This document shows, one piece after another, positions 3,090 to 59,592 of a stretch of 64,000 nucleotides of DNA (position 1 is the first letter of the stretch; each line of letters starts with the position of its first letter). Where the stretch lies: NCBI GenBank assembly GCA_021836725.1, contig JAKBHL010000011.1:94494-158493 (forward strand). The letters are read 5' to 3'. This DNA is from a bacterium (GTDB taxonomy: Bacteria > Patescibacteriota > Minisyncoccia > Phycocordibacterales > Phycocordibacteraceae). The translations under genes and the position numbers were made by a program. The notes under the pieces were generated by a model. It made no database searches and had not been told where the DNA came from. It saw only the letters and a program-made list of their open reading frames with translations.

Positions 3090-3092
3090 CCA

Positions 3093-3445
3093 GAACCCAT
3101 CTCAATCTCCCAAGATGACATCTTGAAGACGCTATCTCACTTTGAATTAGGAAACTCCATTTGCGACACGCTCCTCGCTTCCTGCGACTCGTCGCTCTGT
3201 CCTTGCGCTCTCGTTTTTGGCTCGCAAAGCGCGTAGTATAGCCAAAAAACACCAAGCTCAGCGCCTTGCGGACGGTCGCAAATGGAGTTTCCTAATTCAA
3301 AGTATCTCAAACCCCCCGCGAGGGATATGCGGCAGAAAGAGGCTTACGGAGCGTGACGACGCGAGTACGAGCCGCTTTTTGAGCACAAAAAGACGGCGTA
3401 CTCCTTTCTGCAGCATACCCGAGCGGGGAAGTTTGAGACGGGTTC
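3093..3445. mobile_element. MITE-like palindromic repeat, copy 1 (composite: core element plus nested ~30-nt inverted repeats at 3138-3168/3280-3310 and small palindrome CAAGATGACATCTTG)
   Basis: Termini GAACCCATCTCAA ... GTTTGAGACGGGTTC; core GGATATGCGGCAGAAAGAGGCTTACGGAGCG...GAGTACGAGCCGCTTTTTGAGCACAAAAAGACGGCGTACTCCTTTCTGCAGCATACC shared with 6 other loci. Confidence 0.75.
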
Positions 3446-4185
3446 TAGCGGTAGTGCGGATTCAGGATAGCTCCGAGGGTAGCGAGAGGGATGCGGAGCG
3501 TCTGGGGGCCAAGGGCATACGGAGCGACCTGGTACGGGTCGAAGAGGATATCGAGATAGCCGTTATCGATGAAGAAATTTTCGAAATTCTTCGCTTCGGG
3601 CGTCGTACCGCGCGTAATGAAGCCCGTGTCGGCATTTTTCCCTATGACGCCCGGGAGCTCTGCACGGCTGATTGCGGAAAGGGTGTCCAGATACGTTGCA
3701 TTCGGCGCGAAGAGATCGGCGAGCGTGAGTTTCGCGCCCGTTGAAGTGTCAAAGGTGAACGTGTGGAAAAACAGATTTCCGTGCGCGCCGAGCGTGTTTT
3801 CATAGACGGTAAAGATGTATGACACCGTGTGCGGCGAAGATGAGACGAGATATTTGATCTGTAGCGTTTGCTTCGCGCCGCCCGGCGGATATGCGGCATT
3901 CCCTCCGGTTTTGAACTGGGAAATCACGCCGCCGATGTAGCTTTGTATGCGTGCGATGGCTTTTCCGTTCGCTCCGCTTGCAAGGGGGGTGGTAGTCGGG
4001 TAATTCGCGGCAATAACATACTCTGGCGACTGCTCCGTATAGGCTCCCGCAGGTAAAAGGACGGGTGTCTGCGTATCTGCCGCGCTCGTCGGCGCTTTCA
4101 CAGGCACCGGCCGCAGAGCGACATAGACGACGATCCCCGCAAGGACAACGCCGATGACCGTAATGCCAAAAATATCCTTTCGCAT
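3445..4185 (-). CDS. Membrane-anchored secreted protein, DUF3298/DUF4163 (RsiV-like) domain; inserted antisense within the ribosomal protein cluster
   Basis: N-terminal TM helix, C-terminal FDPYQVAPYALGPQTLRIP motif resembling DUF3298; reverse strand between rplB and rpsS. Confidence 0.6.
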   Translation of the reverse strand: MRKDIFGITVIGVVLAGIVVYVALRPVPVKAPTSAADTQTPVLLPAGAYTEQSPEYVIAANYPTTTPLASGANGKAIARIQSYIGGVISQFKTGGNAAYPPGGAKQTLQIKYLVSSSPHTVSYIFTVYENTLGAHGNLFFHTFTFDTSTGAKLTLADLFAPNATYLDTLSAISRAELPGVIGKNADTGFITRGTTPEAKNFENFFIDNGYLDILFDPYQVAPYALGPQTLRIPLATLGAILNPHYR

Positions 4186-13252: not shown

Positions 13253-13837
13253 ATGGCACACAAGAATCCGAAGGAAGAACGCACGTACGTGATGATAAAG
13301 CCCGACGGAGTGAAAAAGGGGCTGGTCGGCGAGATTATCAAGCGTTTCGAGCAGCGCGATCTCAAGATCGTCGCTCTCGAGATGTTTCAGCCGACGTTCG
13401 AGCAGATCGATACGCATTATCCGAAAGATGCCGCGTGGGTGAAGCGCCTCGGCGAGAAGACGCTCGCTACCTATGAAAAGTATCAGTTTGATGCGATGGA
13501 GGATTTCGGTACGGCCGCTCCCGAAGAGATCGGCCCTGAAATACGGAAATGGCTCGTCGATTACATGCTCTCCGCTCCTCTCGTGAAGATGGTGGTCGAA
13601 GGCACGCACGCGGTCGACATGGTGCGTAAGATCTGCGGCCCGACGATGCCGTATCAAGCCGATATGGGCACCATCCGCGGAGATTTTTCCAATGATTCCC
13701 CCGCCATCGCGAACGCCGAGAAACGCGCGGTCGCGAACATCGTTCACGCGTCCGAGACGCCCGAGGAAGCGGCGCACGAGATTGAGCACTGGTTCGGGAA
13801 GAGCACCCTCCACCGCTACAAACGGCACGGCGATTAG
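13253..13837 (+). CDS. ndk: Nucleoside diphosphate kinase with ~45-aa internal insertion
   Basis: ERTYVMIKPDGV and NIVHASE (active-site His) motifs; 194 aa vs ~140 typical. Confidence 0.85.
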   Translation: MAHKNPKEERTYVMIKPDGVKKGLVGEIIKRFEQRDLKIVALEMFQPTFEQIDTHYPKDAAWVKRLGEKTLATYEKYQFDAMEDFGTAAPEEIGPEIRKWLVDYMLSAPLVKMVVEGTHAVDMVRKICGPTMPYQADMGTIRGDFSNDSPAIANAEKRAVANIVHASETPEEAAHEIEHWFGKSTLHRYKRHGD

Positions 13838-13991
13838 AACCCATCCCAAAACCCCCGCCTCCCCCGCGAAGGGTATGCGGCAGAAAGAGGCTCTCGGAGC
13901 CCGACGGGGCGAGAGGCGAGCCGCTTTTAGAGCAGAAAAAGACAGCGTACTCCTTTCTGTCGCATACCCGAGGGGGTTTTGGGATGGGTTC
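13838..13991. mobile_element. MITE-like palindromic repeat, copy 2 (canonical; perfect 20-nt TIRs GAACCCATCCCAAAACCCCC / GGGGGTTTTGGGATGGGTTC)
   Basis: Begins immediately after ndk TAG stop (TAGAACCC); core shared with other copies. Confidence 0.85.
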
Positions 13992-14150
13992 CAGAAAGGG
14001 AGTATACTTATACCCGGAGCCGTTCTTAAAAACGCAACTTGCCTCATTTTCGGGAGCTTTACATTCAGGTTCGCTTGGCGAATTCCGCAGGGAAATCCGA
14101 TAGCCGCCATTGGGGCACCCACCTGGCAGAATAAAGTTGCATCAGGGAAC

Positions 14151-18241: not shown

Positions 18242-18775
18242 ATGAAAATCGTCGCCCTCTCGGGAAGTTTGCGAAAGGATTCTTACAACACGATGCTTCT
18301 GCGCTCATGTGCGGAGCTTGCTCCGGCGAACATGGAAATCGAGCTAGTGGGTATCGGCGATCTGCCGCTCTACAATTCCGATTTGGAAGCGGCGTATCCG
18401 GCTGCGGCGCAGGCGCTCAAAGATGCGGTGAATGCGGCCGATGGCCTCATCATCGCGACACCGGAGTACAACCGCTCGATCTCAGGCGTTCTGAAGAACG
18501 CCATTGATTGGCTGAGCCGGCCGTACGGGCAGAACTCTTTCGCCCGCAAGCCGGTGCTCGTCGCCGGCGTTTCGATAGGGAAGATCGGCACTGCCGTCGC
18601 GCAGAGCCACTTGAAGCAAATCATGACATACCTCGATGCAAATCTTATCGGTCAGCCAGAACTGTATCTCGGGCCCGCTGCCGAGCTCTTCGACGCGTCG
18701 GGGAAGCTTACGAATGACTCGACGAAAGAACTGCTCGCGAAAGCGCTCGGCGCGCTCCTTGAGCGCGCGTCCTAG
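18242..18775 (+). CDS. NADPH-dependent FMN reductase family (SsuE/YieF/ChrR-like)
   Basis: MKIVALSGSLRKDSYN...ATPEYNRSISGVLKNAIDW flavodoxin-like signature. Confidence 0.85.
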   Translation: MKIVALSGSLRKDSYNTMLLRSCAELAPANMEIELVGIGDLPLYNSDLEAAYPAAAQALKDAVNAADGLIIATPEYNRSISGVLKNAIDWLSRPYGQNSFARKPVLVAGVSIGKIGTAVAQSHLKQIMTYLDANLIGQPELYLGPAAELFDASGKLTNDSTKELLAKALGALLERAS

Positions 18776-18925
18776 AACCCATCTCAAAACCCCCGCTCGG
18801 GTATGCGGCAGAAAGGAGTACGCCGTCTTTTTCTGCTCTAAAAGCAGCTCGAACTTACGCCGTCGCGCTCCATAAGCCTCTTTCTGCCGCATACCTCTCG
18901 CGGGGATATAAGGTTTTGAAATGAT
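18775..18925. mobile_element. MITE-like palindromic repeat, copy 3 (opposite orientation of core)
   Basis: Starts at the TAG stop of the upstream gene (TAGAACCCATCTCAAAACCCCC); right end GGTTTTGAAATGAT. Confidence 0.8.
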
Positions 18926-18932
18926 CTGGTAC

Positions 18933-19622: not shown

Positions 19623-20192
19623 ATGCCGCCCGAGATGACCGATGAAGAAATCGTCCGCCGGACACTGCTCGACAAGGAAGCATTTACGCCCCTCATCGAA
19701 CGGTATGAAGCGAAACTCACGCGTTATCTCGAACGGCTAGGGGTCGGCGTCCGCGAAGATCGTGAAGACATCCTGCAGAATGCCTTTATCAAGGCATACA
19801 GGAACCTCAACAGTTTCGATCAGACGCTCGCATTTTCCTCGTGGATGTACCGCATCGCGCATAATGAGGCGATGAGTTTCTTCCGCTCCCGGCATGCGCG
19901 TCCGCAGGTGGTGCTCGACGAGGGGAGCGAAACGCTCCTTACGGAATTGCGGGATGAGGATTCGGATACGGCGCATCTTGCGGAGCTCCGGCTCTCGCGC
20001 GAGGAACTCGCAAAGGCGTTCACGGCGCTTACGCCCGTGCAGCGAGACGTCCTCACGCTCCGTTTTTTTGAAGATCGGTCATATGCCGAGATATCCGATA
20101 TCCTTGAAGTGCCGACGGGGACGGTCTCAACGCTCCTGTATCGCGCTAAACGGGCTCTGCGCGAAGCGCTTCCTGAACCATTTTCACTATGA
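19623..20192 (+). CDS. ECF-type RNA polymerase sigma-70 factor
   Basis: Region 2 (SWMYRIAHNEAMSFFR) and region 4 (SYAEISDILEVPTGTVSTLLYRAKRAL) motifs. Confidence 0.88.
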   Translation: MPPEMTDEEIVRRTLLDKEAFTPLIERYEAKLTRYLERLGVGVREDREDILQNAFIKAYRNLNSFDQTLAFSSWMYRIAHNEAMSFFRSRHARPQVVLDEGSETLLTELRDEDSDTAHLAELRLSREELAKAFTALTPVQRDVLTLRFFEDRSYAEISDILEVPTGTVSTLLYRAKRALREALPEPFSL

Positions 20193-21070
20193 TGCACGAC
20201 GAACAAAAAGACGACCAGCTCGCTCGAAAGGTGCTCGAACGCATCAGCGGCGAACATCTCGTTCCGCGCCCGCGCTGGGAATTCATATTCAAGAATTATT
20301 TTTTCTGGATATTCGGCGCGTTCGCGGTCGCGCTGAGCGCTCTCGCATTTTCCGCGATGCTCTTCGATATCCAGAACGTCGACTGGCGTCTCTCAGCCGC
20401 TACGCACGCGAACTTCCTTGCTTTCTTCCTTGAGGCGGCACCCTTCCTCTGGGCAGGCGCTCTCATACTTTTCATACTCGTCGGCTACGCGAATGTGCGC
20501 CGGACGGCGCACGGCTATCGTTACTCACTCGCCGTTATCGCGCTCGGCGCGGTGCTCGCTTCTCTGGTGCTGGGCAGCGCCCTTTACGCGAGCGGTCTTG
20601 GCGGCGAGATCGAGGAAGCGATTGGCGACCATCCGCCCTTCTACCGTCCTATTCTTGTTGAAGAGCGCTCCTGGTGGCTTGCGCCGGAAAAAGGCCTCTT
20701 AGGCGGACGCGTAATCTCGCTTGCGCCGGATAACGCTTCCTTCGCACTCCGCGACTTCAAGGGGCATCTGTGGCAGGTCGAAACCGGCGACTTGCGCAAT
20801 GCCGATTTTACAGCCGTGCTGCGCGGCGGCATCGTCCGTATCGTCGGCGTACCGGTGGCGGCGACCAGTTCAACTTTCCATGCCTGTTTCGTATTTCCCT
20901 GGGAGATCCGGTATGGTTTTTTCGGCAATTTTTTCCACGCGCCGTCCATGCCGCGCCCGCCGCTGTCCGCGTCCACCAGTGAAAGGAGCATCACGACGCC
21001 GCGCAGCGAACTCTGCAAGGGCATCCGCCCCTACCGGCAGCTTCGTAGCATCGACGAGACCCGCTTCTAG
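20189..21070 (+). CDS. Putative membrane anti-sigma factor (ATGA overlap with sigma gene); C-terminus runs into MITE copy 4
   Basis: Cotranscribed with ECF sigma, 3-4 TM helices; the last ~60 aa are low-complexity and lie immediately upstream of the MITE, whose first bases give the TAG stop. Confidence 0.55.
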   Translation: MMHDEQKDDQLARKVLERISGEHLVPRPRWEFIFKNYFFWIFGAFAVALSALAFSAMLFDIQNVDWRLSAATHANFLAFFLEAAPFLWAGALILFILVGYANVRRTAHGYRYSLAVIALGAVLASLVLGSALYASGLGGEIEEAIGDHPPFYRPILVEERSWWLAPEKGLLGGRVISLAPDNASFALRDFKGHLWQVETGDLRNADFTAVLRGGIVRIVGVPVAATSSTFHACFVFPWEIRYGFFGNFFHAPSMPRPPLSASTSERSITTPRSELCKGIRPYRQLRSIDETRF

Positions 21071-21215
21071 AACCATTTCAAAACTCAGCATTTCCCCGAA
21101 GGGTGTGCGACAGAAAGAGGCTTACGGAGCGCGACGGCGCGAGTACGAGCCGCTTTTTGAGCACAAAAAGACGGCGTACTCCTTTCTGCCGCACACCCTT
21201 CGGGGGTCTGTCTTC
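21070..21215. mobile_element. MITE-like palindromic repeat, copy 4
   Basis: GAACCATTTCAAAAC...core identical to copy 1 over ~100 nt. Confidence 0.8.
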
Positions 21216-21798: not shown

Positions 21799-21815
21799 TA
21801 CGAAACGATAACTAG

Positions 21816-21952
21816 AACCCCCAATCCCCGTCGGATATGCGACAGAAAGGAGTACGCTGTCTTTTCCTTCTGAAAAAGCAGCTCGTACTCGCACCGGCGC
21901 ACTCCGTAAGCCTCTTTCTGCCGCATACCCGAGCGGGGGTTTGGGATGGGTT
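21816..21952. mobile_element. MITE-like palindromic repeat, copy 5
   Basis: TAGAACCCCCAATCCCCGTCGG...GGGGGTTTGGGATGGGTT termini. Confidence 0.8.
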
Positions 21953-25560: not shown

Positions 25561-26341
25561 GGCGCTGGTGTGGCGGCAGTATCGCGCGCGCGGAAGGCAT
25601 ACGCTGCCGTGGCGCACAACGCATGATCCGTACCGGATACTCGTCTCCGAAATCATGCTGCAGCAGACGCAGGTGGAACGTGTACTGCCGTTCTATGCCG
25701 CGTTCATAAAAAAGTTCCCGACGGCGCGCGCGCTCGCCGCGGCGCCGCTCTCCGAAATTCTGAAAAGCTGGCAAGGACTCGGCTATAATCGTCGGGCGAA
25801 CATGCTCCTCAAGGCGGCGAAAGAAATCGCGGCGCACGGAATGCCGCATACGGTGCACGAGCTCGAAAAATTGCCGGGTATCGGTCCCTACACCGCCCGC
25901 GCTCTTGCGGCGTTCGCCTACAACCATGACGTCGTCGTGGTGGAAACGAACATCCGCACGGCCGTTCTGCATCATTTCTTTCCGAAAAGGAAAAACGTCT
26001 CCGATGCGGAGATAGAACGCATACTGAGGAAGGTGTCGCCTGCGGGGAGGGCAAGAGAATGGTACAGCGCGCTCATGGATTACGGCGCTCACTTGAAACG
26101 TTCGGGCATATCGCGCAATGCGCAGAGCCGGCACTATGCAAAACAGACGAAATTCGCGGGCTCCGCGCGCGAAGCGCGCGGAGCCATCCTCCGAGAACTT
26201 ACTCGTAGAAGCGCAACGAGCGAGCGTCTCATGGGGCTATTCGGGCCGCTCCGGAGAGCGCAGGCCGCGCGCGCCCTTGCTGCGCTTGCCGCGGAGGGGC
26301 TGATTCGCGCCCGAGGGAACCGATACGCGCTCGCGGACTAA
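25529..26341 (+). CDS. MutY-like HhH-GPD adenine glycosylase homolog lacking Fe-S cluster loop and NUDIX-like C-terminal domain; C-terminal winged-helix-like tail (start uncertain, possibly 25541)
   Basis: LPWR...DPYRILVSEIMLQQTQVERV and LPGIGPYTARAL HhH motifs; zero Cys after the HhH region. Confidence 0.75.
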   Translation: MNAKMSSTKFRALVWRQYRARGRHTLPWRTTHDPYRILVSEIMLQQTQVERVLPFYAAFIKKFPTARALAAAPLSEILKSWQGLGYNRRANMLLKAAKEIAAHGMPHTVHELEKLPGIGPYTARALAAFAYNHDVVVVETNIRTAVLHHFFPKRKNVSDAEIERILRKVSPAGRAREWYSALMDYGAHLKRSGISRNAQSRHYAKQTKFAGSAREARGAILRELTRRSATSERLMGLFGPLRRAQAARALAALAAEGLIRARGNRYALAD

Positions 26342-26523
26342 AACCCATTTCAAACCCCATCTTCTCCTAAGATGTCATCTTAGGAGATTTGACCGGCCTC
26401 CGCGAGAGGTATGCGGCAGAAAGAGGCTTACGGAGCGTGACGACGCGAGTACGAGCCGCTTTTTGAGCACAAAAAGACGGCGTACTCCTTTCTGCCGCAT
26501 ACCCGAGCGGGGGTTTTCTGTCC
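26341..26523. mobile_element. MITE-like palindromic repeat, copy 6 (with nested 40-nt palindrome CTCCTAAGATGTCATCTTAGGAG)
   Basis: AAACCCATTTCAAACCCC left end overlapping the TAA stop of the upstream gene; right end abuts stop of MFS gene on the other strand. Confidence 0.8.
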
Positions 26524-27690
26524 CTAGCGGGAATCTTTTATGAGAAGTGTCGTTCCCGCGCCGGCGATGGCGATGAATCCGCCGGTGAGCACGAAGAGGA
26601 TTTGATAATTACCGAAAAAGAGGATCAAGCTCCCCGCAAGCGGCGCGACGAGATCCGCCAGGGGCCAGATACCGCGGAAGATATTCACCGAATTCACGTC
26701 CTGTTCGGAAACCCGCCGGAAAAAATGTATCTCGGTCATGCTTTCAATAAACGCCGCACCGACGCGTGAGATGATGAGGATGCCGAGGATCAGGATGAAC
26801 GGAGAAGCCGCGGAAAGCGCGCCGATTGAGGCGAGCGCGCCGCCCGCAATGAGAAATCCCGCAAACATAAGCTCTTTCTCCCCGAGAAACCGATCGGCGA
26901 TCCACCCCGCCGGATATTCGATGAGCACATAGGGTATGAGCATTATTGAGAACATTTTGCCGAGGCTTGACCAGGGTATGCCGAGCGCGCTGTGGAGATA
27001 TACCGGAACGTAGAGCGGCATCCAGACGTAAAAGAGATACAGGAGAAGATGAGCGAACGTAACCGACGCGAGATCGCGGTCGTGCGCTATGCAAAAGAGC
27101 GCATCGCGCATGCGTGATAGTTTGGGAGGTTTGCCTTTAGGGAGAGCGCGGGCGGCGAAGAGGACGATGAACGGCACAAGCGCCGCTGAGGCGGCGAGGA
27201 ATACGCGGCCGTAGTCATTTGAATGCGCGAGAAGCGCGCCCATGAGAAGCGGTGCCGCAAGTGCGGCGATATTCCATGCGGTAAGGAAAGTCGCTCGGAC
27301 GCGACCGGTCGTACCCTCCTGCGCGATAGTCGCTTCCAGGAGCAGGTCAAGCTGGTAGTACAGGAAGGGTTGCAGCGCTACGGTGACGGCGATAAGCAGA
27401 ATGCCGGCGATAGCGCCCGGAGATGCCGCGAGCGCGAAGAGCGCGACCATTTCCGCGATTGCAAATACGAGCGCGAGCTGTTGCGCGCCGTAGCGCGCAA
27501 CCAGGCGCGGGAGATAGGGGAAAAGCAGAACCGCGCCGAGAGCGCCGAGAGCGATCACGAGACCGGCATCCGCTTCCGGCATGAATGCGGAAAGGTAGGG
27601 GAGCAGGATATAGATGATGAGGGTCGCGAAAAGCGAGAAGAAAAAATTCCCGACGGCGAGGATGACACGCGGACGCATCGCCTCGAGCAT
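26524..27690 (-). CDS. Major facilitator superfamily transporter
   Basis: 12 predicted TM helices, MFS-like loop motifs. Confidence 0.8.
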   Translation of the reverse strand: MLEAMRPRVILAVGNFFFSLFATLIIYILLPYLSAFMPEADAGLVIALGALGAVLLFPYLPRLVARYGAQQLALVFAIAEMVALFALAASPGAIAGILLIAVTVALQPFLYYQLDLLLEATIAQEGTTGRVRATFLTAWNIAALAAPLLMGALLAHSNDYGRVFLAASAALVPFIVLFAARALPKGKPPKLSRMRDALFCIAHDRDLASVTFAHLLLYLFYVWMPLYVPVYLHSALGIPWSSLGKMFSIMLIPYVLIEYPAGWIADRFLGEKELMFAGFLIAGGALASIGALSAASPFILILGILIISRVGAAFIESMTEIHFFRRVSEQDVNSVNIFRGIWPLADLVAPLAGSLILFFGNYQILFVLTGGFIAIAGAGTTLLIKDSR

Positions 27691-36170: not shown

Positions 36171-36190
36171 GCCGAGACGGTGGGATTTGG
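36171..36190 (-). repeat. Partial duplicate of the tRNA-Ser 3' end (GCCGAGACGGTGGGATTTGG vs GCGGAGACGGTGGGATTTGA)
   Basis: 17/20 identity, ~130 nt beyond the tRNA 3' end. Confidence 0.5.
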
Positions 36191-36320
36191 TCACACATAA
36201 TTTCCTGCTGGAAATTTGCGCTACCCCGCCTCGCGCCGGCGCGCTCCGGCCTTCAAATCCCCCGAATCTCTTGCAATGATGTTTCACTCAGCCAGCTCCC
36301 AGCTGGCTTCGCGAATCATT

Positions 36321-45335: not shown

Positions 45336-46097
45336 ATGCTTTTTCTCCTCACGATCCTATTTTTTGCGCTCGGGGCTATCGTGGCAAGTTTCGTCGGAGT
45401 ACTTGTCGCGCGCCTCAATACCGGTCAGAGTTTTCTTATCGGGCGTTCTCGTTGCGACACGTGCGGCGCGCCGCTTTCGCCGTTCTCACTCATTCCGATC
45501 ATCTCATACGTCGCGCTTGGCGCCCGCGCGCGCTGCTGCGGCGCACGCCTCTCATTCTTCGCGCCTCTCATGGAATTGCTCTTGGGAGGGCTTTTCGCAC
45601 TCGCGTATCTCAAGATCGGTTTTACCGCCGCGCTGCCGTTTATGCTTTTTTCGCTCTCGACGCTCCTCGCGCTCGTCCTCTACGACCTTGCTCACCAAAT
45701 ACTCCCGTCCGTGCTCCTCGGAGCATTCGTCCTTGCGAGCGCTTGCGCGGGATTTTTACCAGCGGAGGATATGAGCGCATTCGGCGTCTCGCTCATGGTC
45801 GCCGGCGCGTTTGCGCTCTTTCTGGCGCTCATCAACCTCCTCTCGCGCGGGCGGGCGATGGGGCTCGCCGACGCGCCGTTTGTGTTCGGACTCGCGCTTC
45901 TGACGGGCCCCGCCGCGCCCGCCGGTTTCATCTCATCGTTTTGGATCGGTGCGGTTATAGGGATAATCGTGTTGGCACGGAGACCGCGAGGTTCTAGAAT
46001 GGGAGTTGAGGTACCGTTTGCGCCTTTCCTCGCCGCCGGTTTCCTCCTCATGTACTTTACTCAATGGAACCCTCTCATCATCGCGGCTTTACGCTGA
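45336..46097 (+). CDS. pilD: Prepilin peptidase (A24 family) PilD
   Basis: N-terminal CDTC...CC zinc-binding region, 6-8 TM helices, conserved Asp-containing loops. Confidence 0.85.
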   Translation: MLFLLTILFFALGAIVASFVGVLVARLNTGQSFLIGRSRCDTCGAPLSPFSLIPIISYVALGARARCCGARLSFFAPLMELLLGGLFALAYLKIGFTAALPFMLFSLSTLLALVLYDLAHQILPSVLLGAFVLASACAGFLPAEDMSAFGVSLMVAGAFALFLALINLLSRGRAMGLADAPFVFGLALLTGPAAPAGFISSFWIGAVIGIIVLARRPRGSRMGVEVPFAPFLAAGFLLMYFTQWNPLIIAALR

Positions 46098-46729: not shown

Positions 46730-47244
46730 CCCGCTCCAGAGGATACACGCTCATCGAACTCATCGTCGCGATGGGGCTCTTTTCGCTCATCATGCTGCTG
46801 GCTTCGGGCGCCTACCTCATTCTGATAGGCGCCAACCGGCAAGCGCAGGCCATTTCCACCGGTATCGACAATCTTTCTTTCGCTCTTGAAAGCATGACGC
46901 GCAGCATCCGTACCGGCACGAACTATAACTGCGGCGGCCTGGGCGATTGTCCGAGTGGCGCCAGCAGTTTTTCTGTCGTGGACGATAACGGCGCGTCGGT
47001 CACGTATAGCCTTGTCGGATCCGCGATTCAAAAAATGACGGGCAATACGGCGAGCACGCTCACCGACCCGTCAGTGACTATCTCGTCCTTGACGTTCTAT
47101 GCGTTTGGCACGCATCCGGCGCCGACCGATTACCAGCAAGCGCGCGTTACCATCATCGTTTCAGGCACCGTCTCCTCCGGCCCGGGGAAAACGGAACCGT
47201 TTACGATTGAAACCGGCGCGACAATGCGCGGATCCGATATATGA
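46720..47244 (+). CDS. Pseudopilin/minor pilin (GspJ/PilW-like)
   Basis: RGYTLIELIVAMGLFSLIML N-terminus; internal start within longer ORF. Confidence 0.7.
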   Translation: MPMTRSRGYTLIELIVAMGLFSLIMLLASGAYLILIGANRQAQAISTGIDNLSFALESMTRSIRTGTNYNCGGLGDCPSGASSFSVVDDNGASVTYSLVGSAIQKMTGNTASTLTDPSVTISSLTFYAFGTHPAPTDYQQARVTIIVSGTVSSGPGKTEPFTIETGATMRGSDI

Positions 47245-48005
47245 AAACATTCCACGAGCCTGAAACTCACCCCGACTCCCCGCTCGGGTATGCGACAGAA
47301 AGGAGTACGCCGTCTTTTTGTGCTCAAAAAGCGGCTCGTACTCGCCCCGTCGGGCTCCGTAAGCCTCTTTCTGCCGCATACCTCTCGCGGGGATGCGAGA
47401 GGTTAGAAGCGGGTCTCGGAGAGCGAAGCCAGCTTCGCGGCTTCACGCTCATCGAAGCCATGATCGCCGTAAGCATCCTCGCGCTTGCGGTCGCGGGGCC
47501 TCTGTTCGGCGCGGATCGCGCTATCGTCGCCGCGGAGGGCGCGCGCTACCAGCTCACCGCTTCCTATCTCGCGCAAGAAGGCGTCGAGTACGTGCGCGCG
47601 ATGCGCGATGATGAGTATCTCCTCGCATATCAGGCGGGCGGCACAAACACCTCAAGCGCCGCCTGGACCGACTTCCTTACCGGAACGGACAGCGCGGCCA
47701 TCACCCAATGCCGTTCAATGACCTGCACGCTCGATCCGGCGCTTCCGATGGGCACCGGAAGCGGATTCTCGCTCAACCCCTGTACCGGCAGCGCCTGCAC
47801 GCCGCTCTATCTCGCAAACAACGGTACTACGAACTACTACACCGAGCAGAGCGGCAATGGCGCGATACTACAGCCGTTCACGCGCACGATACAAGCGTTT
47901 ACGGTCTCTTCCACCGAGGAGCGCATCGTCTCGATCGTGTCGTGGAATTTCCATGGTATCCCGTACACAGTTACGGTGATAGACCACCTTACGTCATGGC
48001 AATGA
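47241..48005 (+). CDS. Pseudopilin with prepilin motif; only in-frame start (47241) lies upstream of the MITE, giving a ~65-aa leader read through the element
   Basis: ...LRGFTLIEAMIAVSILALAV prepilin motif at aa ~60; no in-frame ATG/GTG/TTG between MITE and motif. Confidence 0.55.
   Translation: MKTFHEPETHPDSPLGYATERSTPSFCAQKAARTRPVGLRKPLSAAYLSRGCERLEAGLGERSQLRGFTLIEAMIAVSILALAVAGPLFGADRAIVAAEGARYQLTASYLAQEGVEYVRAMRDDEYLLAYQAGGTNTSSAAWTDFLTGTDSAAITQCRSMTCTLDPALPMGTGSGFSLNPCTGSACTPLYLANNGTTNYYTEQSGNGAILQPFTRTIQAFTVSSTEERIVSIVSWNFHGIPYTVTVIDHLTSWQ
47262..47418. mobile_element. MITE-like palindromic repeat, copy 7 (inside the 5' end of the next pseudopilin ORF)
   Basis: CCCCGCTCGGGTATGCGACAGAAAGGAGTACGCC...CTTTCTGCCGCATACCTCTCGCGGGG core. 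Confidence 0.8.
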
Positions 48006-48633: not shown

Positions 48634-50703
<2,070 letters not shown>

Positions 50704-52459: not shown

Positions 52460-53044
52460 ATGCCCACCACTCCCGCTACGCAGATAAACGTCGAGTATTT
52501 CTTCCGCCTCTTGTACGATCTTTTCTATGGCGCGCATGGGTCGGCGAACTATTCGGTATTTCAGACTTTTCTCGCACACCTCTGGCTCTGGATCATCATC
52601 GTCGGCTACGCACTCTCGGTCATAGGGCTTTTCGTCATCGTGTACGCCATGATACGCCTTTTCGAGCTTCGCGAGCGCGAAGAGGAACAGTACGGCACGC
52701 TACTCCTCGCGCCGGAGGCTGAGGGCGGCATGAACCGGCGCTGGCTGCACATTGAGTCGCTCGGGAACGGCGCAAACGCGAGCGCGTGGCGCGAGGCGAT
52801 CATCGAAGCCGACATCATGCTTGACGACATGCTCACCGAACAAGGGTACGCGGGCGAGGGCGTCGGCGAGAAGCTCAAGACAGTCGAACCGGCGGATTTC
52901 AACACGCTCCAGGATGCGTGGGAGGCGCACAAAGTGCGCAACCAGATAGCGCACGAAGGTTCCGCTTTCGATCTCTCCGAAACCCTCGCCCGCCGCACCC
53001 TTGCCCGCTACGAATCCGTCTTCCGCGAGTTCAAAATCATCTAG
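52460..53044 (+). CDS. Membrane-anchored protein with C-terminal DUF4145/HEPN-like domain (R-x4-H-E-G motif)
   Basis: Two N-terminal TM helices; C-terminal AWEAHKVRNQIAHEG resembles the Rx4-6H HEPN signature. Confidence 0.5.
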   Translation: MPTTPATQINVEYFFRLLYDLFYGAHGSANYSVFQTFLAHLWLWIIIVGYALSVIGLFVIVYAMIRLFELREREEEQYGTLLLAPEAEGGMNRRWLHIESLGNGANASAWREAIIEADIMLDDMLTEQGYAGEGVGEKLKTVEPADFNTLQDAWEAHKVRNQIAHEGSAFDLSETLARRTLARYESVFREFKII

Positions 53045-53051
53045 AAGCATT

Positions 53052-53080
53052 TTTGGTGCAGTTGCGTTGCCGTCGGGAAT
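53052..53080 (+). promoter_or_regulatory. Strong sigma70-like promoter TTGCGT-17-TATACT upstream of candidate ssrA
   Basis: Hexamers and spacing seen directly; ~18 nt upstream of proposed mature 5' end. Confidence 0.5.
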
Positions 53081-53098
53081 TTCCTATACTTGCCCCTA

Positions 53099-53506
53099 GC
53101 GGGGTAGAGGAGAGGTACCTCGGGAGGCTCATGTGAAAACGTGACCCTATCCGGTAACGGGTAGTGGAAAAACTCTCTAAATTGCTGGAATACCGTTAGA
53201 GCTTCTTGTGCTACAGCGCGATCCGAAAGGATGAGCGCGAACGCCTAAAAAACGAGAAGATTCGGCAATCAGCAGCCAAGCCTAGTTTTACTTCGGGGGT
53301 TCCCCCATTCCGATGGGGAAGGCGAACGGCGGAGTGCGAAAGTGAGGACAAAGTCCGAGCGGGAGCAACTCCGGTAAGTGAGACTGGGAAGGTTCAGAGA
53401 CTATAATGGGAGAGTCCTTATGGGATTGTGGTATAGTCCATTCCTGTTGGAAACAGCAGGTGTAAAAGAACCTCCAGACGCCGGTTCGATTCCGGCCCCC
53501 GCAACA
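53099..53506 (+). ncRNA. ssrA: Candidate tmRNA (ssrA), ~400 nt
   Basis: 3' tRNA-like end GCCGG-TTCGATT-CCGGC-CCCCGC-A with 5' GCGGGGT able to form the acceptor stem; promoter upstream and hairpin terminator downstream; tag ORF not confidently identified. Confidence 0.5.
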
Positions 53507-53513
53507 AGCAAAC

Positions 53514-53539
53514 GAAAGCCGCCTAAAAGGGCGGCTTTC
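53514..53539 (+). terminator. Intrinsic terminator after candidate ssrA
   Basis: GAAAGCCGCC-TAAAA-GGGCGGCTTTC hairpin. Confidence 0.6.
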
Positions 53540-53684
53540 GCATTTGCGCAGTTGCGGAGGGAGCGAAGCGCCTGCGCGCTTCGCGTCCGGAATCGAACAG
53601 CCGGAGCGATGTTTCGCCAGCAGGCGAAACTGCGAGGCAGGGTTCGTGAAAATCCGCGAGCGACGGCGAGCGGATTATTCCTGA

Positions 53685-53708
53685 CTTCGACCGGCCCCCG
53701 CAACAAGG
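53685..53708 (+). repeat. Direct repeat of the ssrA 3' end (TTCGACCGGCCCCCGCAACAAGG)
   Basis: Matches TTCGATTCCGGCCCCCGCAACAAGC at 53485-53508; att-like duplication. Confidence 0.6.
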
Positions 53709-53840
53709 TAGTGCGTGGCCTGCTAACCCAGACCGTTCGGCATCAAAAGTGCCGAAAATCAGTTCAAGACTGATACGGTCGAAATACGCAAAAGGCATCC
53801 TTTCGGCCGTCTTTTGCGTAGGTAATGCTAAAGTATCCAC

Positions 53841-54425
53841 ATGACCGACGAACAATTGTTGTCGCGAGCGAGATCTCTGCAAGAAGACGCGCGACGGATT
53901 TTGCAAGAATTAAATTTGTTCTCGATTATCAGAACGATCTCGGAACCGGAAATCGTGGGGAGCGTGAAAAGCGGGCTCATGATCATGCCTGACATCGATA
54001 TCCATGCGTGGATGGAAGAGCCGAATCTCGGGGCTGTCTCGAATATGCTTTCCACACTTGCGAAGATGTCGACCATTCAGATGGTACATTTCAACAACTA
54101 CCGCGAGCTACGGAGGGATTTCCGAAAGGATCGCATCAATTTTCCGCACGCATACTATGTCGGACTGCGTACCATACAGCCCTCGGGCGAATGGAAGATT
54201 GATATGTGGTTTGGAAAGCGCGGGGAAGTGGGCGAGTATGATGCAACCGAGCTTGAAACGATGACCGATGAACAGCGTCTCGGCATTCTGCGACTCAAGG
54301 AGACTTGGAGAGACGGTAAGGGGTATCGGGATGGTGTTCTCAGCACCGATTTCTATAAAGCGGTCATGCGACACGATGTAAAAGACGAGGGAGGATTTGT
54401 AGAATATCTGAAGACGAAAGAATAA
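53841..54425 (+). CDS. Nucleotidyltransferase-fold protein (GrpB/UPF0157-like; GS-x11-DxD motif), in low-GC islet
   Basis: IVGSVKSGLMIMPDIDIH minimal NTase motif; local GC ~50% vs ~63% genome. Confidence 0.6.
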   Translation: MTDEQLLSRARSLQEDARRILQELNLFSIIRTISEPEIVGSVKSGLMIMPDIDIHAWMEEPNLGAVSNMLSTLAKMSTIQMVHFNNYRELRRDFRKDRINFPHAYYVGLRTIQPSGEWKIDMWFGKRGEVGEYDATELETMTDEQRLGILRLKETWRDGKGYRDGVLSTDFYKAVMRHDVKDEGGFVEYLKTKE

Positions 54426-54428
54426 CGT

Positions 54429-54929
54429 ATGGAAATTAAATCTACACTGACTAATCGTTCAGGCCAGGTATTGGATGTTATCTATCGGGACATAGAATCG
54501 TTTGAAGAACTTGGGAATCGCACTGTGCATGGTGTTCACGCGTTCTGTTTCGCCGGTGACGAGCTGATCATCGTCTATTCGGAAGCAAAAGGGTATTGGA
54601 CGCCGCCGGGCGGCGGGGTGGAGCCGGGGGAGACGGCTGAAGAAGCGATTGTGCGCGAAGTCTTCGAGGAAACGAACATGCGGGTACTCAAACAGCGTGT
54701 CATTGGATACCAGGAAATCTCCGAGCCGCACCGGCTTACGGTGCAAGTGCGTTCGGTTTGCATCGTTGAACCGATTGGGCCGTTTATCGCCGATGCCGAT
54801 TCCAGCGATGGCGAAGGAGTGACCGAAATCAAGCCCATTGATCCAAAAGATATCAAAAAATATTTCGACTGGGGTGAAATTGGTGCTCATATACTTGAAC
54901 GATCCTTATCTATTAAAAGACAGCTCTGA
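54429..54929 (+). CDS. NUDIX hydrolase
   Basis: Nudix box GGGVEPGETAEEAIVREVFEETN. Confidence 0.85.
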   Translation: MEIKSTLTNRSGQVLDVIYRDIESFEELGNRTVHGVHAFCFAGDELIIVYSEAKGYWTPPGGGVEPGETAEEAIVREVFEETNMRVLKQRVIGYQEISEPHRLTVQVRSVCIVEPIGPFIADADSSDGEGVTEIKPIDPKDIKKYFDWGEIGAHILERSLSIKRQL

Positions 54930-54940
54930 ACATAGTCACT

Positions 54941-55288
54941 ATGCAAGAGGTCGTACAGGAGGCCAGGAACGATTTTGAGAATGGTCTGATTGATCAAGGC
55001 CTACTCATTGAGTTGTATAGAGGATATAAAGATGTTGGTGATACGGTACGGTTTGTAACCAAAGCAAGAAATATTTTCCCGAACGGGAATTGTGGACTCG
55101 CGTCTCTGTATCTAAAAAGAAAATTAGGAGGCGAAATTGTTCATGGGAAATATGAGAAACACGACCATACATTCCTGCTCAGCAAAGATACTGTTATAGA
55201 TATCACTGCAGATCAGTTCGGAGGCCCAAAAGTGTATGTCGGTCCTCTTCGGTTACCATGGTCATTTGAAGAAAACAGACGAGCTTGA
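54941..55288 (+). CDS. Hypothetical protein (low GC ~43%)
   Basis: ORF with codon usage distinct from surroundings; no recognised motif. Confidence 0.45.
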   Translation: MQEVVQEARNDFENGLIDQGLLIELYRGYKDVGDTVRFVTKARNIFPNGNCGLASLYLKRKLGGEIVHGKYEKHDHTFLLSKDTVIDITADQFGGPKVYVGPLRLPWSFEENRRA

Positions 55289-55373
55289 TAAGCACAGGAA
55301 TTGAACTTGAAAAAATCACTGGATGCACCGATTCCCGACCCGCTGTCCTCCGCTTGCGACACGGCAAAAAATC

Positions 55374-55403
55374 TTGACAAAAGTCAGTAATAAGTGGTAT
55401 TCT
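55374..55403 (+). promoter_or_regulatory. Sigma70-like promoter TTGACA-18-TATTCT
   Basis: Seen directly upstream of 55476 ORF. Confidence 0.4.
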
Positions 55404-55475
55404 GCAATCGAGTCGTCTGGGAATTAGACGCACTCGGTACATTCGTCGTTCAACGAAATACCGTAGGAGTTCTTT

Positions 55476-55763
55476 ATGAATCGAAACAGAGAGCTCGTTT
55501 ATTCCGCTATCCTCGCGATGGTCATGTTGCCGGCCATGGCCGCAGCACCGGCACCACGCGCAGCGGAAACGCAGTTAAGCATCCGCATCACGCGGCATGC
55601 CGCGGAGCTGATTGCCGCACGAGAGCGCGGCATGACACCGACCATCGCGCCAGCCACTGCCCGGCCAGGCTCGAACAGGTTCTTTGCGCAGTCCTGCAAA
55701 GCAGCCGGCGGCAACGCCGTCATCGCGCGAGGGGCAGGTTCCAAGCAGCTCGTTTGCGTGTGA
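55476..55763 (+). CDS. Small secreted protein, hypothetical
   Basis: Signal peptide (AILAMVMLPAMAAAPA). Confidence 0.45.
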   Translation: MNRNRELVYSAILAMVMLPAMAAAPAPRAAETQLSIRITRHAAELIAARERGMTPTIAPATARPGSNRFFAQSCKAAGGNAVIARGAGSKQLVCV

Positions 55764-55883
55764 ATCGCACGCATTCACGGGGCAAAAGGGCATGCTGAGA
55801 TGCCACCAGGGCGGAAGCGAAAGCTTCCGCCCTAATTTTTTGTTCATTCTTGCGCGCTATACTGGAGGAACACCGCACCCGCC

Positions 55884-56861
55884 ATGGTATCGAAAACGAT
55901 TAAAACCGCGTCAGTCATGCTCGCCATCGCGTGTTTTGCCTTGCCGTCCGTGGCATCAGCTTCGACGCTCTCGTCCGGGCAGGTACAGGCGATTATCGGG
56001 TTACTTGAGGCGTTCAACGTCAGCCAATCGACCGTAGCTCGCGTAAAGCAGGCGCTCGGGATTTCCCAAACCCCCGTTTCCGGCGGTCGCACCAGCGCCG
56101 CGGACCCGCCCACTCCTTCGCAGCCACCGCCCGCTCCGCATGTTCCTGCGATCGGAAGCGCGTACCCCTCGAGCAATATCGGTTTCGACCTTTCTTACAA
56201 TGCTCTTTCATACCCGGCCGGGCACTTCAGTTTCGGCATCGTCGGCATTTCAGGCGGGAAAGCGTTCGTGCACAACAACCGGCTGGTTTCCGAATACTCC
56301 TGGGCGCATGTCGGTGCTATCGCACCGACCGTCTACATGAACCTGAACGCGCCCTATGGCAGTACTGTGGCGGGGAACACCGATACTCCCAAATCCTGCC
56401 CGACACAGGGCGCATCCGGTACCGAACCCACGGCCTGCGAAGGATACAACTACGGTTTCAATGCGGCGAAAGACGCATACGCGTACGCAAAAGATCATGC
56501 CGTTACATCCGCGCTCTGGTGGATCGATATCGAGGAAGCGAACAGCTGGTCGCCGAACACGGCTGTCAACGACGCAACGATACAAGGCGCGATTGATTAC
56601 CTGAATACGCAGGGCGTGCGCGCCGGCATCTACTCCGTGGCGCGCATGTGGAACGACATCGCGGGAAATAATTTCGTGCCGACACAGACGATAAACGGCC
56701 AGACGGTTTCCGTTCCGGCGTGGATGCCCATAGGCATTTCGAACCTGGTCAGCGCGATCAACGCGTGTGCGACTGAAACGAGTTTCATCCCGGGCGGTCC
56801 GATTTGGCTCGTGCAGTATGTGGCGAACTCGACAGCCGTCGACCAAAACGTTTCCTGCTGA
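55884..56861 (+). CDS. Secreted protein with P-rich linker; possible glycoside-hydrolase-like TIM-barrel (GH25/DUF1906-like) domain
   Basis: Signal peptide; IGFDLSY...WWIDIEE motifs weakly reminiscent of GH25/DUF1906; function call weak. Confidence 0.5.
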   Translation: MVSKTIKTASVMLAIACFALPSVASASTLSSGQVQAIIGLLEAFNVSQSTVARVKQALGISQTPVSGGRTSAADPPTPSQPPPAPHVPAIGSAYPSSNIGFDLSYNALSYPAGHFSFGIVGISGGKAFVHNNRLVSEYSWAHVGAIAPTVYMNLNAPYGSTVAGNTDTPKSCPTQGASGTEPTACEGYNYGFNAAKDAYAYAKDHAVTSALWWIDIEEANSWSPNTAVNDATIQGAIDYLNTQGVRAGIYSVARMWNDIAGNNFVPTQTINGQTVSVPAWMPIGISNLVSAINACATETSFIPGGPIWLVQYVANSTAVDQNVSC

Positions 56862-57005
56862 AAGACCGAAAAAGACTCCCGCGTAAGGAAGCTTGACACG
56901 TTCTAATTGATATATATGCTCTGCGGCAGAGCCCTTTGATTCCATTGCGGACAGAGAGCTTCGCCCGCACCGGCCGGCGCGGACAATCCCTCGAGGAGAG
57001 TTGTC

Positions 57006-57578
57006 ATGGCCACACAAAATGCGGTCGAAGAGAAACTAAGTACGACAATCCGGACACAACCTTTGTTTGTCCCCGTCGGAACGACAGAACTTCCGAAACT
57101 CCCCAGCAAGCCGACTGATCAGTGTTTCAACGGTCCGCAGTACGGGTTGCGCAGCATCAATCTCAACCGTTGGCTCCTGTCATATCAGCCGGGAACGCCC
57201 GGTTGCGTTGTCACGGCGCTCAGGCCAACCGGGGTGGTGACAGAAGCTGAATGGGTTGCGGCGCTGCTCGGCGTACCAGCTGATACGCCGATGAAATTAA
57301 CAGCCGAGCTCCTCAAAGAGCGCGACCACACCATGTCCTTGGTACAAGTGGAAGGCATGGTGGAACGAACGCAACAAGGACTTCGTACCGGCATGCCTAC
57401 TGACGGGTGGTCCAGTTTCTTCTTTGTGGAGAACAAGAAAGACGGTGTTGAACTGACGGGCATCTATCGTGACGAAAGTAAAATGCGATGGTGTCTGCGC
57501 TTTTCACTCAATCGCGATATTCTCTGGCATTGCAATCATCGTCTCCTTGTTCCCAATTTGGACGTTTCGAAGCTCTGA
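57006..57578 (+). CDS. Hypothetical protein
   Basis: ORF with upstream TTGACA-type promoter and downstream terminator. Confidence 0.5.
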   Translation: MATQNAVEEKLSTTIRTQPLFVPVGTTELPKLPSKPTDQCFNGPQYGLRSINLNRWLLSYQPGTPGCVVTALRPTGVVTEAEWVAALLGVPADTPMKLTAELLKERDHTMSLVQVEGMVERTQQGLRTGMPTDGWSSFFFVENKKDGVELTGIYRDESKMRWCLRFSLNRDILWHCNHRLLVPNLDVSKL

Positions 57579-57612
57579 TTCCCTTACCATAGCGTTCAAA
57601 CGTTCTCCAAAT

Positions 57613-57644
57613 AAAATCCCTCTCGCGCACGCGAGAGGGATTTT
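57613..57644 (+). terminator. Intrinsic terminator
   Basis: AAAATCCCTCTCGCG-CAC-GCGAGAGGGATTTT. Confidence 0.75.
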
Positions 57645-57666
57645 ATATCATTTCCGATAGAAAGAT

Positions 57667-57691
57667 AAAAACCGCCTTCTCGGCGGTTTTT
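57667..57691. terminator. Bidirectional intrinsic terminator
   Basis: AAAAACCGCC-TTCTC-GGCGGTTTTT. Confidence 0.75.
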
Positions 57692-57710
57692 ATCCGCATC
57701 GCGTCTTCTC

Positions 57711-57938
57711 TTACATCTTAACCGGGCACATTGTGCAGGTTTTTTTGTGGGTGAAAGCAAGATAGAGCGCAGAGAGGCCGACGAGTATGTAGACTGTCCA
57801 CTCAAGCGACGGCCACGCGCTGAGTACGAAGTGGACGACGTTCCAATCAGCCCCTGCAAAATTCCCGAGACCGATCAAACCCCAATTGAGCGCCCCGACA
57901 ACCGTCAGCACGAACGCAATCTGGTGGAATATTTTCAT
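57711..57938 (-). CDS. DUF378 family small membrane protein
   Basis: VVGALNWGLIGL...WTVYILVGLSALY typical DUF378. Confidence 0.75.
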   Translation of the reverse strand: MKIFHQIAFVLTVVGALNWGLIGLGNFAGADWNVVHFVLSAWPSLEWTVYILVGLSALYLAFTHKKTCTMCPVKM

Positions 57939-58010
57939 ACGATGACGACGGCCGCTAGCTAGTAAGGTTTATGATGCCGTCTGCCGGAAGTATGACGTCT
58001 CCGGGGGAAA

Positions 58011-58532: not shown

Positions 58533-58568
58533 CGATTGTTTCTAAAGAGACGGCTGCGCGAGAACGAA

Positions 58569-58898: not shown

Positions 58899-58972
58899 AC
58901 GTTACAAGAGAGCATACGGCGAAGCCGGCGCTGCCGTCAACACGCCGCGCGAACCGTACGCTCCACCGCCGG

Positions 58973-59458: not shown

Positions 59459-59592
59459 AATTGAAATGAGTTATGGAGTAGTAACCGGCAGACTCATGCT
59501 TCGAACGCGCACATCCATCATGGTAAAGCAAACGACGTGAAATGAAAGCGCCTCCTGGGGAGTAATAAAGATATACCAACATAGCCATATTC

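Follow-up and report, generated by a model that had tools for sequence, protein, structure and literature searches.

The 64,000-nt stretch of contig JAKBHL010000011.1 analyzed here (assembly GCA_021836725.1, positions 94,494 to 158,493; the window) carries seven copies of a palindromic element of about 150 bp. We interpret the element, with a probability of about 70%, as a non-autonomous miniature inverted-repeat transposable element (MITE) that works like Correia or RUP elements, has terminal inverted repeats, inserted at TA within (C)TAG, and was later inherited at fixed sites. The structural and empty-site features of MITEs were found: a size of less than 300 bp, lack of coding sequence, dispersal, terminal inverted repeats, and a target-site duplication. 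It is a well-defined new family of the Correia/RUP/ERIC class of bacterial MITEs. A first-pass annotation, made from the window alone, had likened the palindrome to the dispersed non-coding ERIC, Correia and MITE elements; the terminal inverted repeats, the TA/TAG ends and the filled and empty sites in relatives bear this out. That annotation did not mention the orientation flips between species, the copy in frame in a pilin leader, or the greater conservation of the interior than of the ends.

Seven discrete copies in both orientations

The copies share a conserved core of about 115 nt. A blastn search with the core consensus and a covariance model (R1), built from 17 copies, each found exactly seven copies on the two strands of the 64 kb. 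Repeat detection, a third route, grouped the same seven loci, and nothing else in the window was matched as a copy. The stretches 36174-36270 and 50310-50358 gave weak covariance-model matches only and were rejected. R1 scored the copies at 102 to 141 bits on the assigned strand versus 29 to 38 bits on the opposite strand. Therefore, the orientation calls are unambiguous. The plus strand is the one that reads CCCCGCGAGGGGTATGCGGCAGAAAGAGGCTTACGGAG...GTACTCCTTTCTGCCGCATACCCGAGCGGGG. The copies are about 140 to 190 bp long, with one composite of 357 bp, and together take up about 2% of the window. Because the genes flanking them are unrelated housekeeping genes, the copies are discrete elements rather than pieces of a longer duplication. 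The seven places, the two orientations, the composite nature of two copies (1 and 6) and their discreteness had been proposed before and are confirmed. Further copies beyond the window were also found, at unrelated loci in related genomes (BP9.bin55 and a Parcubacteria metagenome-assembled genome [MAG]).

We compared four species-level lineages: the window (W), BP9 (BP), WY4 (WY) and the ENA contig L011 (EN). They share about 88 to 92% DNA identity, and their four-fold degenerate sites are 71 to 76% identical. Homologs of the membrane protein encoded at 20189-21070 served to find the orthologous loci. The copies sit at orthologous sites across the four lineages and are as follows.

Copy 1, 3092-3448, plus strand: composite; core 3314-3428; left terminal repeat 3092-3107; inserts are a small palindrome (~3108-3132) and a nested second MITE-like element with 29-nt perfect inverted repeats (3139-3167 and 3275-3303); at the right end, CTAG (3445-3448) coincides with the TAG stop of a minus-strand DUF3298 gene (3445-4185).
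Copy 2, 13835-13994, plus strand: core 13862-13976; the left end, TAG at 13835-13837, is the ndk stop; right end CAG; inverted in the sister lineage BP9.bin55 (L004) and missing from one same-species contig (L033).
Copy 3, 18772-18928, minus strand: core 18791-18905; between convergent genes for an FMN reductase (its TAG stop, 18773-18775, is the element end) and a VTT-domain protein (stop at 18933); same orientation in L011; empty in L012.
Copy 4, 21067-21215, plus strand: core 21092-21206; starts at the TAG stop (21068-21070) of the membrane protein gene downstream of an ECF sigma factor; right terminal repeat degenerate; an internally deleted remnant in L011; empty in L013 and L014.
Copy 5, 21812-21952, minus strand: core 21826-21940; between DUF4383 and VKOR genes; the L011 ortholog, which is oppositely oriented and has a central deletion, has its derived right end in common with this copy; empty in L013 and L014.
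Copy 6, 26338-26527, plus strand: composite; core 26398-26512; nested 25-nt palindrome at ~26362-26388; between convergent genes for an HhH-GPD glycosylase (TAA stop 26339-26341) and an MFS transporter (stop CTA 26524-26526); same orientation in L011; inverted in BP9 (L010); empty in L014, where a single CTAG is common to both stops.
Copy 7, 47262-47418, minus strand: core 47278-47392; intragenic and in frame in a pilin-like open reading frame (ORF), 47241-48005; in BP9 (L002) and WY4 (L003) the element is inverted and the frame remains open.

Terminal repeats and fold

The terminal repeats are about 22 nt long and inverted, with the consensus CTAGAACCCATYTCAAAACCCC / GGGGTTTTGARATGGGTTCTAG and TA or TAG at both ends; the ends of the element read GAACCCATYTCAAAACCCC. 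A TA flanking GAAC...GTTC is compatible with all intact copies. The terminal repeats have decayed, with a mean match to the consensus of 64 to 68%. The terminal repeat quoted in the first-pass annotation, GGGGTTTTGRRATGGGTTCTAG, is real (4 matches at ≤3 mismatches versus 0 expected) and is intact in some copies only.

Each copy is a near-palindrome, with a stem of about 45 bp around an asymmetric three-way junction. The outer stem consists of the terminal repeats, then a CCCCGC/GCGGGG helix that is broken by a tandem GA·GA mismatch, and it also includes an invariant helix of 16 to 17 bp (GGTATGCGGCAGAAAG/CTTTCTGCCGCATACC). In several copies, the GA·GA mismatch has been turned into perfect pairing (GAAG/CTTC, or TC/GA). 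The junction has about 11 unpaired bases (AGGCUUACGGA), a 4-bp hairpin (GCGYGACGRCGC), and a larger hairpin (GAGUACGAGCCGCUUUUUG-AGCA-CAAAAAGACGGCGUACUC). Its single-stranded stretch is conserved, and the first six bases (AGGCU) and the last three (GGA) are invariant.

The predicted hairpin is much more stable than shuffled sequence, as a check proposed with the annotation had asked. The RNA folds at -61 to -74 kcal/mol (z of -4.0 to -9.1 versus shuffled sequence), and the DNA folds at -35 to -42 kcal/mol (z of -6.4 to -8.4). Over 17 copies, 94.5% of cells were paired, and eight pairs had compensatory (double) changes. In the small hairpin, 100% of cells were paired, with the variants GC (9 copies), CG (7) and UA (2). 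In the large hairpin, the loop is closed by a CG pair in 9 copies and by a GC pair in 6. Mismatches of the G·U type outnumbered those of the A·C type in cells (27 versus 11) and as distinct events (13 versus 7), a weak hint of folding on one strand.

Rfam 15 gave no match at the gathering score; its permissive mode gave only hairpin-like chance matches with E>1. A scan of two regions gave no promoter-like site inside the element. The terminal repeat of copy 2 contains an outward hexamer resembling a -35 box that is aligned with a flanking -10, as a consensus match only.

Stop codons as insertion targets

Six of the 14 element ends are exactly stop codons. The first-pass annotation had named four upstream genes whose stops lie at an element end and one stop on the opposite strand. 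The four hold (ndk, FMN reductase, the membrane protein and HhH-GPD), but there are two opposite-strand cases (DUF3298 and MFS), not one. The association recurs in other genomes, for example at the gyrA and ruvC stops in BP9.

No copy was found in relatives at 80% (L012, L013) or 72% (L014-L016) protein identity. These relatives and the same-species contig L033, which is 100% identical to the window over 1.7 kb upstream of copy 2, provided empty sites, as follows.

Copy 2, L033: GGCGAT TAG AAGGGAGTATAC (GATTAGAAGGGAG); the filled allele in the window reads GGCGAT TAG[AACCC...GGGTTCCAG]AAAGGGAGTATAC.
Copy 3, L012: ...GCA TCA TAG CGCCCGGTGT TCA... (TCATAG/CGCC).
Copy 4, L013: GGC TTT TAG C... 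(TTTTAG/CC); L014: GGC TTA TAG C...
Copy 6, L014: GCA GAC TAG CGG (GACTAGCGG), where two convergent genes have overlapping stops, formed by the palindromic CTAG.

The TAG stop is at the same codon in the filled and empty alleles of copies 2, 3, 4 and 6. The TAG was therefore present before insertion, and the stop was the target, which was duplicated rather than created; the proteins were neither shortened nor extended. The earlier proposal that element-borne stops remodel protein C termini thus fails at every empty site recovered. Empty sites have one (C)TAG, versus one at each end of the filled sites, which is a target-site duplication. The comparison of orthologous loci that had been suggested, with TA as a possible target, did yield filled and empty sites, and both the ends and the targets have TA within (C)TAG. 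The target sites are (C/T/A)TAG with TA at both ends, and the 4-bp YTAR duplication of the IS5 group fits equally well as an IS630-type TA. IS630 elements have a preference for CTAG, which would agree with the (C)TAG sites of this family.

CTAG is depleted about 8-fold in the window (28 observed versus 237 expected from base composition). Twelve of the 28 CTAGs are C-TAG stop codons in a greedy ORF set with at least one spurious call, and the coding share of the window is about 89%. Since CTAG is depleted, coding is dense and CTAGs are often stops, tolerated insertions fall exactly on stop codons. Eight C-TAG stops in the window remain unoccupied.

Just downstream of copy 2, the window (13996-14020) reads TATACTTATACCCGG, versus TATACTGGTACCGG in the empty allele (L033) and in BP9 (L004). 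This three-base cluster extends a local palindrome and may be a template-switch mutation.

Inversion in place and other rearrangements

The orientation of the element is opposite between sister species, which are about 10% diverged, at four of the seven orthologous loci. Between BP9 and the window, it is reversed at every orthologous locus compared, and the flanking genes are identical. We scored inversion by global alignment of the whole element, flipped versus direct. Orientations and identities were as follows.

Copy 2, W plus, BP minus: W/BP 90% flipped, 70% direct.
Copy 3, W minus, EN minus: W/EN 67% flipped, 89% direct (same-orientation control).
Copy 5, W minus, EN plus (center deleted).
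Copy 6, W plus, BP minus, EN plus: W/BP 75% flipped, 61% direct.
Copy 7, W minus, BP plus, WY plus: W/BP 81% flipped, 64% direct; W/WY 88% flipped, 68% direct; BP/WY 69% flipped, 83% direct (same-orientation control).

At copies 5 and 7, derived termini are common to the lineages while the interior is flipped. This result indicates inversion in place, not re-insertion. An assembly artifact was rejected as the source of the inversions: the perfect arm repeats are only about 17 to 26 bp, BP9 and WY4 agree at copy 7, and the open frame there is kept through compensated indels. The arm repeats would also be shorter than the assembly k-mers, judging from the contig names. Comparing the arms, direct versus flipped, did not locate the breakpoints, since each arm is an inverted repeat of the other.

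Other changes were found in L011. At copy 4, the left terminus is joined to the right arm by a deletion at a GCA microhomology. Copy 5 has lost its center, and the small hairpin of copy 6 contains an insert of about 60 nt. In the window, copy 7 has an identical variant at both termini (CTGAAAC/GTTTCAG), which suggests arm-to-arm correction.

In copies 1 and 6 alone, a related palindrome of about 25 nt (TCTCCYAAGATGNCATCTTRGGAGA) separates the terminal repeat from the stem (3108-3132 and 26362-26388; 2 matches versus 0.05 expected). This palindrome is either a subfamily feature or a third tiny insertion. The second MITE-like element inside the left terminal repeat of copy 1 is unrelated to the family. 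It spans 165 bp (3139-3303), with perfect 29-nt terminal inverted repeats (ACTTTGAATTAGGAAACTCCATTTGCGAC) and a flanking direct repeat, TATCTCA, and no other copy was found in the window or the fetched loci. In BP9, a truncated copy (L009, ~945-1003), consisting of a terminal repeat and the left arm up to GCGGCAGAA, lies directly upstream of a full copy, in a tandem or nested arrangement.

A copy in frame in a pilin leader

Copy 7 lies between the ATG at 47241, which overlaps the TGA of the previous gene as ATGA, and a prepilin cleavage motif, RG/FTLIE (47436-47456; RG/FTLIEAMIA). The N-terminal methylation motif is at residues 66 to 86 of the ORF, and no alternative start codon was found in the window between the ATG and the motif (codons read by eye). 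The simplest reading is that copy 7 is an RPE-like in-frame insertion in a predicted 65-residue leader. Gene callers predict products of 254 and 256 residues (P0121, P0122). Element-free orthologs have leaders of 8 to 35 residues, and the leader end (REQ..LRG) is recognizable beyond the insert. The same pilus operon encodes, on the plus strand at 45336-46097, a prepilin peptidase with an A24 N-terminal domain, which would be the enzyme expected to remove the leader. The predicted removal of the leader may explain why copy 7 is tolerated.

From the ATG to the motif, the frame is uninterrupted in W (element minus, 157 nt), in BP (plus, 160 nt) and in WY (plus, in a different element frame, 160 nt). 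Copy 7 can be read through whichever way it points, and the three lineages each use a different reading frame of the element. Four strain variants of the same species also have an open frame, and one of them has 12 substitutions in the leader and element region. The frame appears to be kept open by purifying selection.

One same-species contig, L036 (ENA ERZ27237364), has 20 differences from the window in 3.8 kb, and 16 of them are clustered in about 280 nt (window 47267-47549) that cover copy 7 and the beginning of the pilin gene. Among these differences is a compensatory exchange of four bases in the small hairpin. Gene conversion by a paralogous copy was rejected as the source of the cluster, since the tract runs past the element into the gene; allelic recombination is therefore the better explanation.

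Members of the pilin family in other Parcubacteria (P0128, P0130, P0154, P0165) have long, variable leaders of 31 to 62 residues. A leader motif, GFTTKR...SDFSFANE(C/R)REQ, recurs in them, sometimes twice. This pattern suggests that the pilin leader may tolerate insertions or duplications more generally.

Hosts

Scanning one genome per species for exact pattern matches gave 10 loci, which belong to three MAGs: BP9.bin55, WY4.bin53 and a Candidatus Parcubacteria MAG that is 99.96% identical to BP9 across their overlap. Homologs of the flanking genes are labeled Minisyncoccota, Paceibacterota or Kaiserbacteria. Stretches of contig DAICBA010000001.1 (GCA_027422635.1), as well as contigs from many ENA, Logan and JGI samples, match the window at 99.6 to 100% identity. 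The core pattern had no match in JGI metagenome contigs, nor had a left half-element pattern, aimed at an autonomous parent; a scan of viral contigs was likewise negative. When the element was translated in six frames and the peptides were searched against 5.8 billion proteins, only three matched: two pilin-like proteins and a 161-residue ORF without a Pfam match that spans an element copy and is probably spurious. That search found no transposase C terminus and no in-frame fusion besides the two pilin-like proteins. The family is confined to a few Minisyncoccota (Parcubacteria) lineages.

Several short contigs from other samples end inside copies (L026 and L029 at window 18805, L021 at 21855, L039 and L041 at 47306), and L045-L047 start inside one, at 3382. 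Because many contigs break within copies, the repeat fragments assemblies of this organism, and breaks in contigs of these genomes at such repeats call for caution.

Conservation of the core and alternative readings

Under the MITE reading, the element would have entered the common ancestor of a small Minisyncoccota (Parcubacteria) species group and integrated at TA within (C)TAG, duplicating the stop, presumably through a DDE transposase supplied in trans. The copies would then have been inherited at fixed sites as their termini decayed. The long near-palindrome would drive local rearrangements: whole-element inversion, probably by a hairpin-driven mechanism, microhomology deletions, arm-to-arm correction, nested insertions and occasional precise loss. 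Whichever way the element is transcribed, the upstream message would carry a highly stable hairpin at its 3' end. Any role of this RNA would most likely be that of a terminator, a stabilizer or an RNase III substrate between tightly packed genes. One copy would be tolerated in frame in a cleaved pilin leader peptide.

Several observations weigh against this reading. First, no transposase or recombinase was found among 57 Pfam-scanned ORFs (47 in the window and 10 beside copies elsewhere), and the metagenome and viral scans gave no transposase with matching ends. Mobilization in trans is therefore something we infer. Second, the length of the duplication is not fixable within CTAG, where 2 to 4 bp (TA, TAG or CTAG) fit. 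Third, inversion in place at copies 2 and 6 is not strictly separable from loss and re-insertion at the same TAG. Fourth, orthologous cores are 86 to 97% identical, versus 71 to 76% for four-fold sites and a match of about 66% to the consensus for the termini. A conserved interior with decayed termini is the reverse of a young or recently amplified MITE. More than neutral decay acts on the interior: selection or constraint, homogenization of copies (concerted evolution), or both.

Orthologous cores are no closer to each other than to paralogs. The loop-closing pair is shared within genomes: it is C-G in 6 of 7 BP copies and G-C in 4 of 7 window copies. Because the L036 tract is better ascribed to allelic recombination, it is these shared pairs that point to concerted evolution among copies, and they are only suggestive.

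Selection on the interior would also be expected if the core were a domesticated functional module, either a structured RNA or a protein-binding DNA site, that is kept at many loci and for which transposition is only history. The core evolves several-fold more slowly than four-fold sites and its own termini, and about 5 of 115 positions (counted by eye) separate the consensus core of the window from that of BP9. The compensatory GC-to-CG exchanges in both inner hairpins (7 and 6 copies), the invariant single-stranded junction bases and the wobble-type mismatches that favor one strand point the same way. However, the strand bias is not significant when events are counted. Moreover, orientation relative to host transcription varies within the genome and between orthologs, copies have been internally deleted or lost, and the family is limited to a handful of lineages. 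The lack of an Rfam match and of a promoter-like site inside the element, in the regions scanned, also speaks against such a module. We consider it rather unlikely. Since orientation is not conserved and no internal promoter-like site was seen, we consider a selfish or neutral element whose hairpin has side effects more likely than a dedicated RNA gene.

Opposite orientations could instead have arisen if different lineages had each received an insertion of their own at the same highly preferred TAG sites. The (C)TAG preference is clear, the same-species empty allele at copy 2 has an ancestral-looking flank, and, as noted, orthologous copies are no more alike than paralogs. However, all six comparable window copies have counterparts at exactly the same site, and no lineage-specific copies were seen in the ~38 kb compared, although eight C-TAG stops are still free. 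Copy 7 is away from any stop codon, yet it is present in three lineages with the same derived left end, CTGAAAC. Copies 4 and 5 have locus-specific degenerate ends that are common to the window and L011. Independent insertion into the same sites is therefore unlikely.

The MITE reading could be extended in a more speculative direction. The 80-nt asymmetric core might be a domesticated module that selection keeps at scores of gene ends and whose recombinase-independent flipping is used functionally, which we regard as a long shot. If so, flipping could switch which strand's three-way-junction RNA or outward promoter faces the neighboring gene, and in the pilin gene it would recode the 65-residue leader. 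The element would then be a MITE-derived, self-inverting regulatory element.

Programmed inversion would make the copies invertons, switches that toggle outward promoters or recode the pilin leader. The orientation differences between sister species at four of seven loci, the frame of copy 7 that is open both ways, and the outward -35-like hexamer at copy 2 would suit such switches. However, about 20 independent same-species assemblies (98.5 to 100% identical) have the window orientation at all seven copies, although these are consensus contigs, which may hide minority orientations; the flips are not fast. No invertase was found among the 47 window ORFs, and the invertible unit is only about 110 to 150 bp, which we judge short for recombinase synapsis. 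Invertons are very unlikely.

Least probable of all is the REP/BIME type, in which a tyrosine transposase (RAYT or IS200/IS605-type) would move the element as single-stranded DNA: REPs are imperfect palindromes of ~20 to 40 nt with a conserved GTAG head and a Y1 (RAYT) transposase, whereas this element, for all its strong single-strand hairpin, arm covariation and slight one-strand wobble bias, is ~150 bp long with 22-nt terminal inverted repeats and TA at both ends, lacks the GTAG head, and has no Y1 transposase among the ORFs scanned.

Relation to known elements

On present evidence, the family appears to be neither the Correia family itself, nor REP/RAYT, nor a recombinase-driven inverton. 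Small inversions in plastid genomes offer a parallel for the flips, since segments between short inverted repeats there flip among close relatives without a dedicated recombinase. Those are usually loops of a few to ~50 bp in non-mobile spacers, whereas here a whole 150-bp mobile element is inverted.

Bacterial MITEs typically have TA termini and long stem-loops (PMC2229807). The Correia elements of Neisseria (CREE/NEMIS) are alike in being non-coding, ~100 to 155 bp long and dispersed beside genes, with ~24-bp terminal inverted repeats, TA termini, target duplication and long hairpin transcripts; in-place inversion is also reported for them (PMC2229807; PMC10969869; PMC2649163). The inversion is described in a 2024 MITE review, which cites Elbeyioglu et al. 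2017 (PMC10969869). Correia elements are further reported to have outward promoters and to serve as RNase III substrates (PMC2229807; PMC10969869; PMC2649163). However, the host phylum is unrelated and no sequence resemblance was recognized in a comparison made without alignment, so that Correia is a functional analogue only. Here the interior, not the termini, is most conserved, and the association with TAG stops is much stricter.

RUP of Streptococcus pneumoniae is likewise small, with terminal inverted repeats and insertion at TA-containing sites, and its mobilization by IS630-Spn1 has been proposed (PMC2229807). RUP has a proposed parent insertion sequence with matching ends, is highly conserved and is thought to be recent, whereas here no parent was found and the copies are old and fixed. 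RPE of Rickettsia is a palindromic element of ~150 bp found in frame in protein genes, as is copy 7 (PMC2229807; PMC10969869), and both RPE and the 107-bp Correia element occur fused in frame into genes (PMC2229807). RPE lies within mature proteins; by contrast, one of seven copies here is intragenic, in a leader expected to be cleaved, which would leave the mature protein unchanged.

A full-text literature search returned no description of a MITE family in candidate-phyla-radiation bacteria. Genomes of this radiation are usually described as streamlined and repeat-poor. In this family, a clean natural example, a preference for TA in CTAG, the extreme depletion of CTAG and the density of coding together direct a mobile element to stop codons, where annotators can be misled into crediting the element with supplying the stops. 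In addition, the four sister species offer a small set of cases in which the palindrome was inverted in place, shortened by deletion or precisely lost, as well as an element tolerated within a signal peptide for which cleavage is predicted.

Other features of the window

A run of ORFs without a Pfam match occupies 52460-59464, around a dip in GC content to 0.51 at 54 to 56 kb and beside an intron-containing tRNA gene. The ORFs are as follows.

52460-53044
53378-53773
53841-54425
55394-55798
55884-56861
57006-57578
58536-59464

A group I intron (Rfam RF00028, 60.2 bits, 53121-53460) interrupts the tRNA gene (53098-53503) within the anticodon loop, and ARAGORN missed the gene in its unspliced form. 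In silico splicing at 53132/53469, with the splice sites and so the anticodon uncertain, yields a 72-nt tRNA-Met(CAT).

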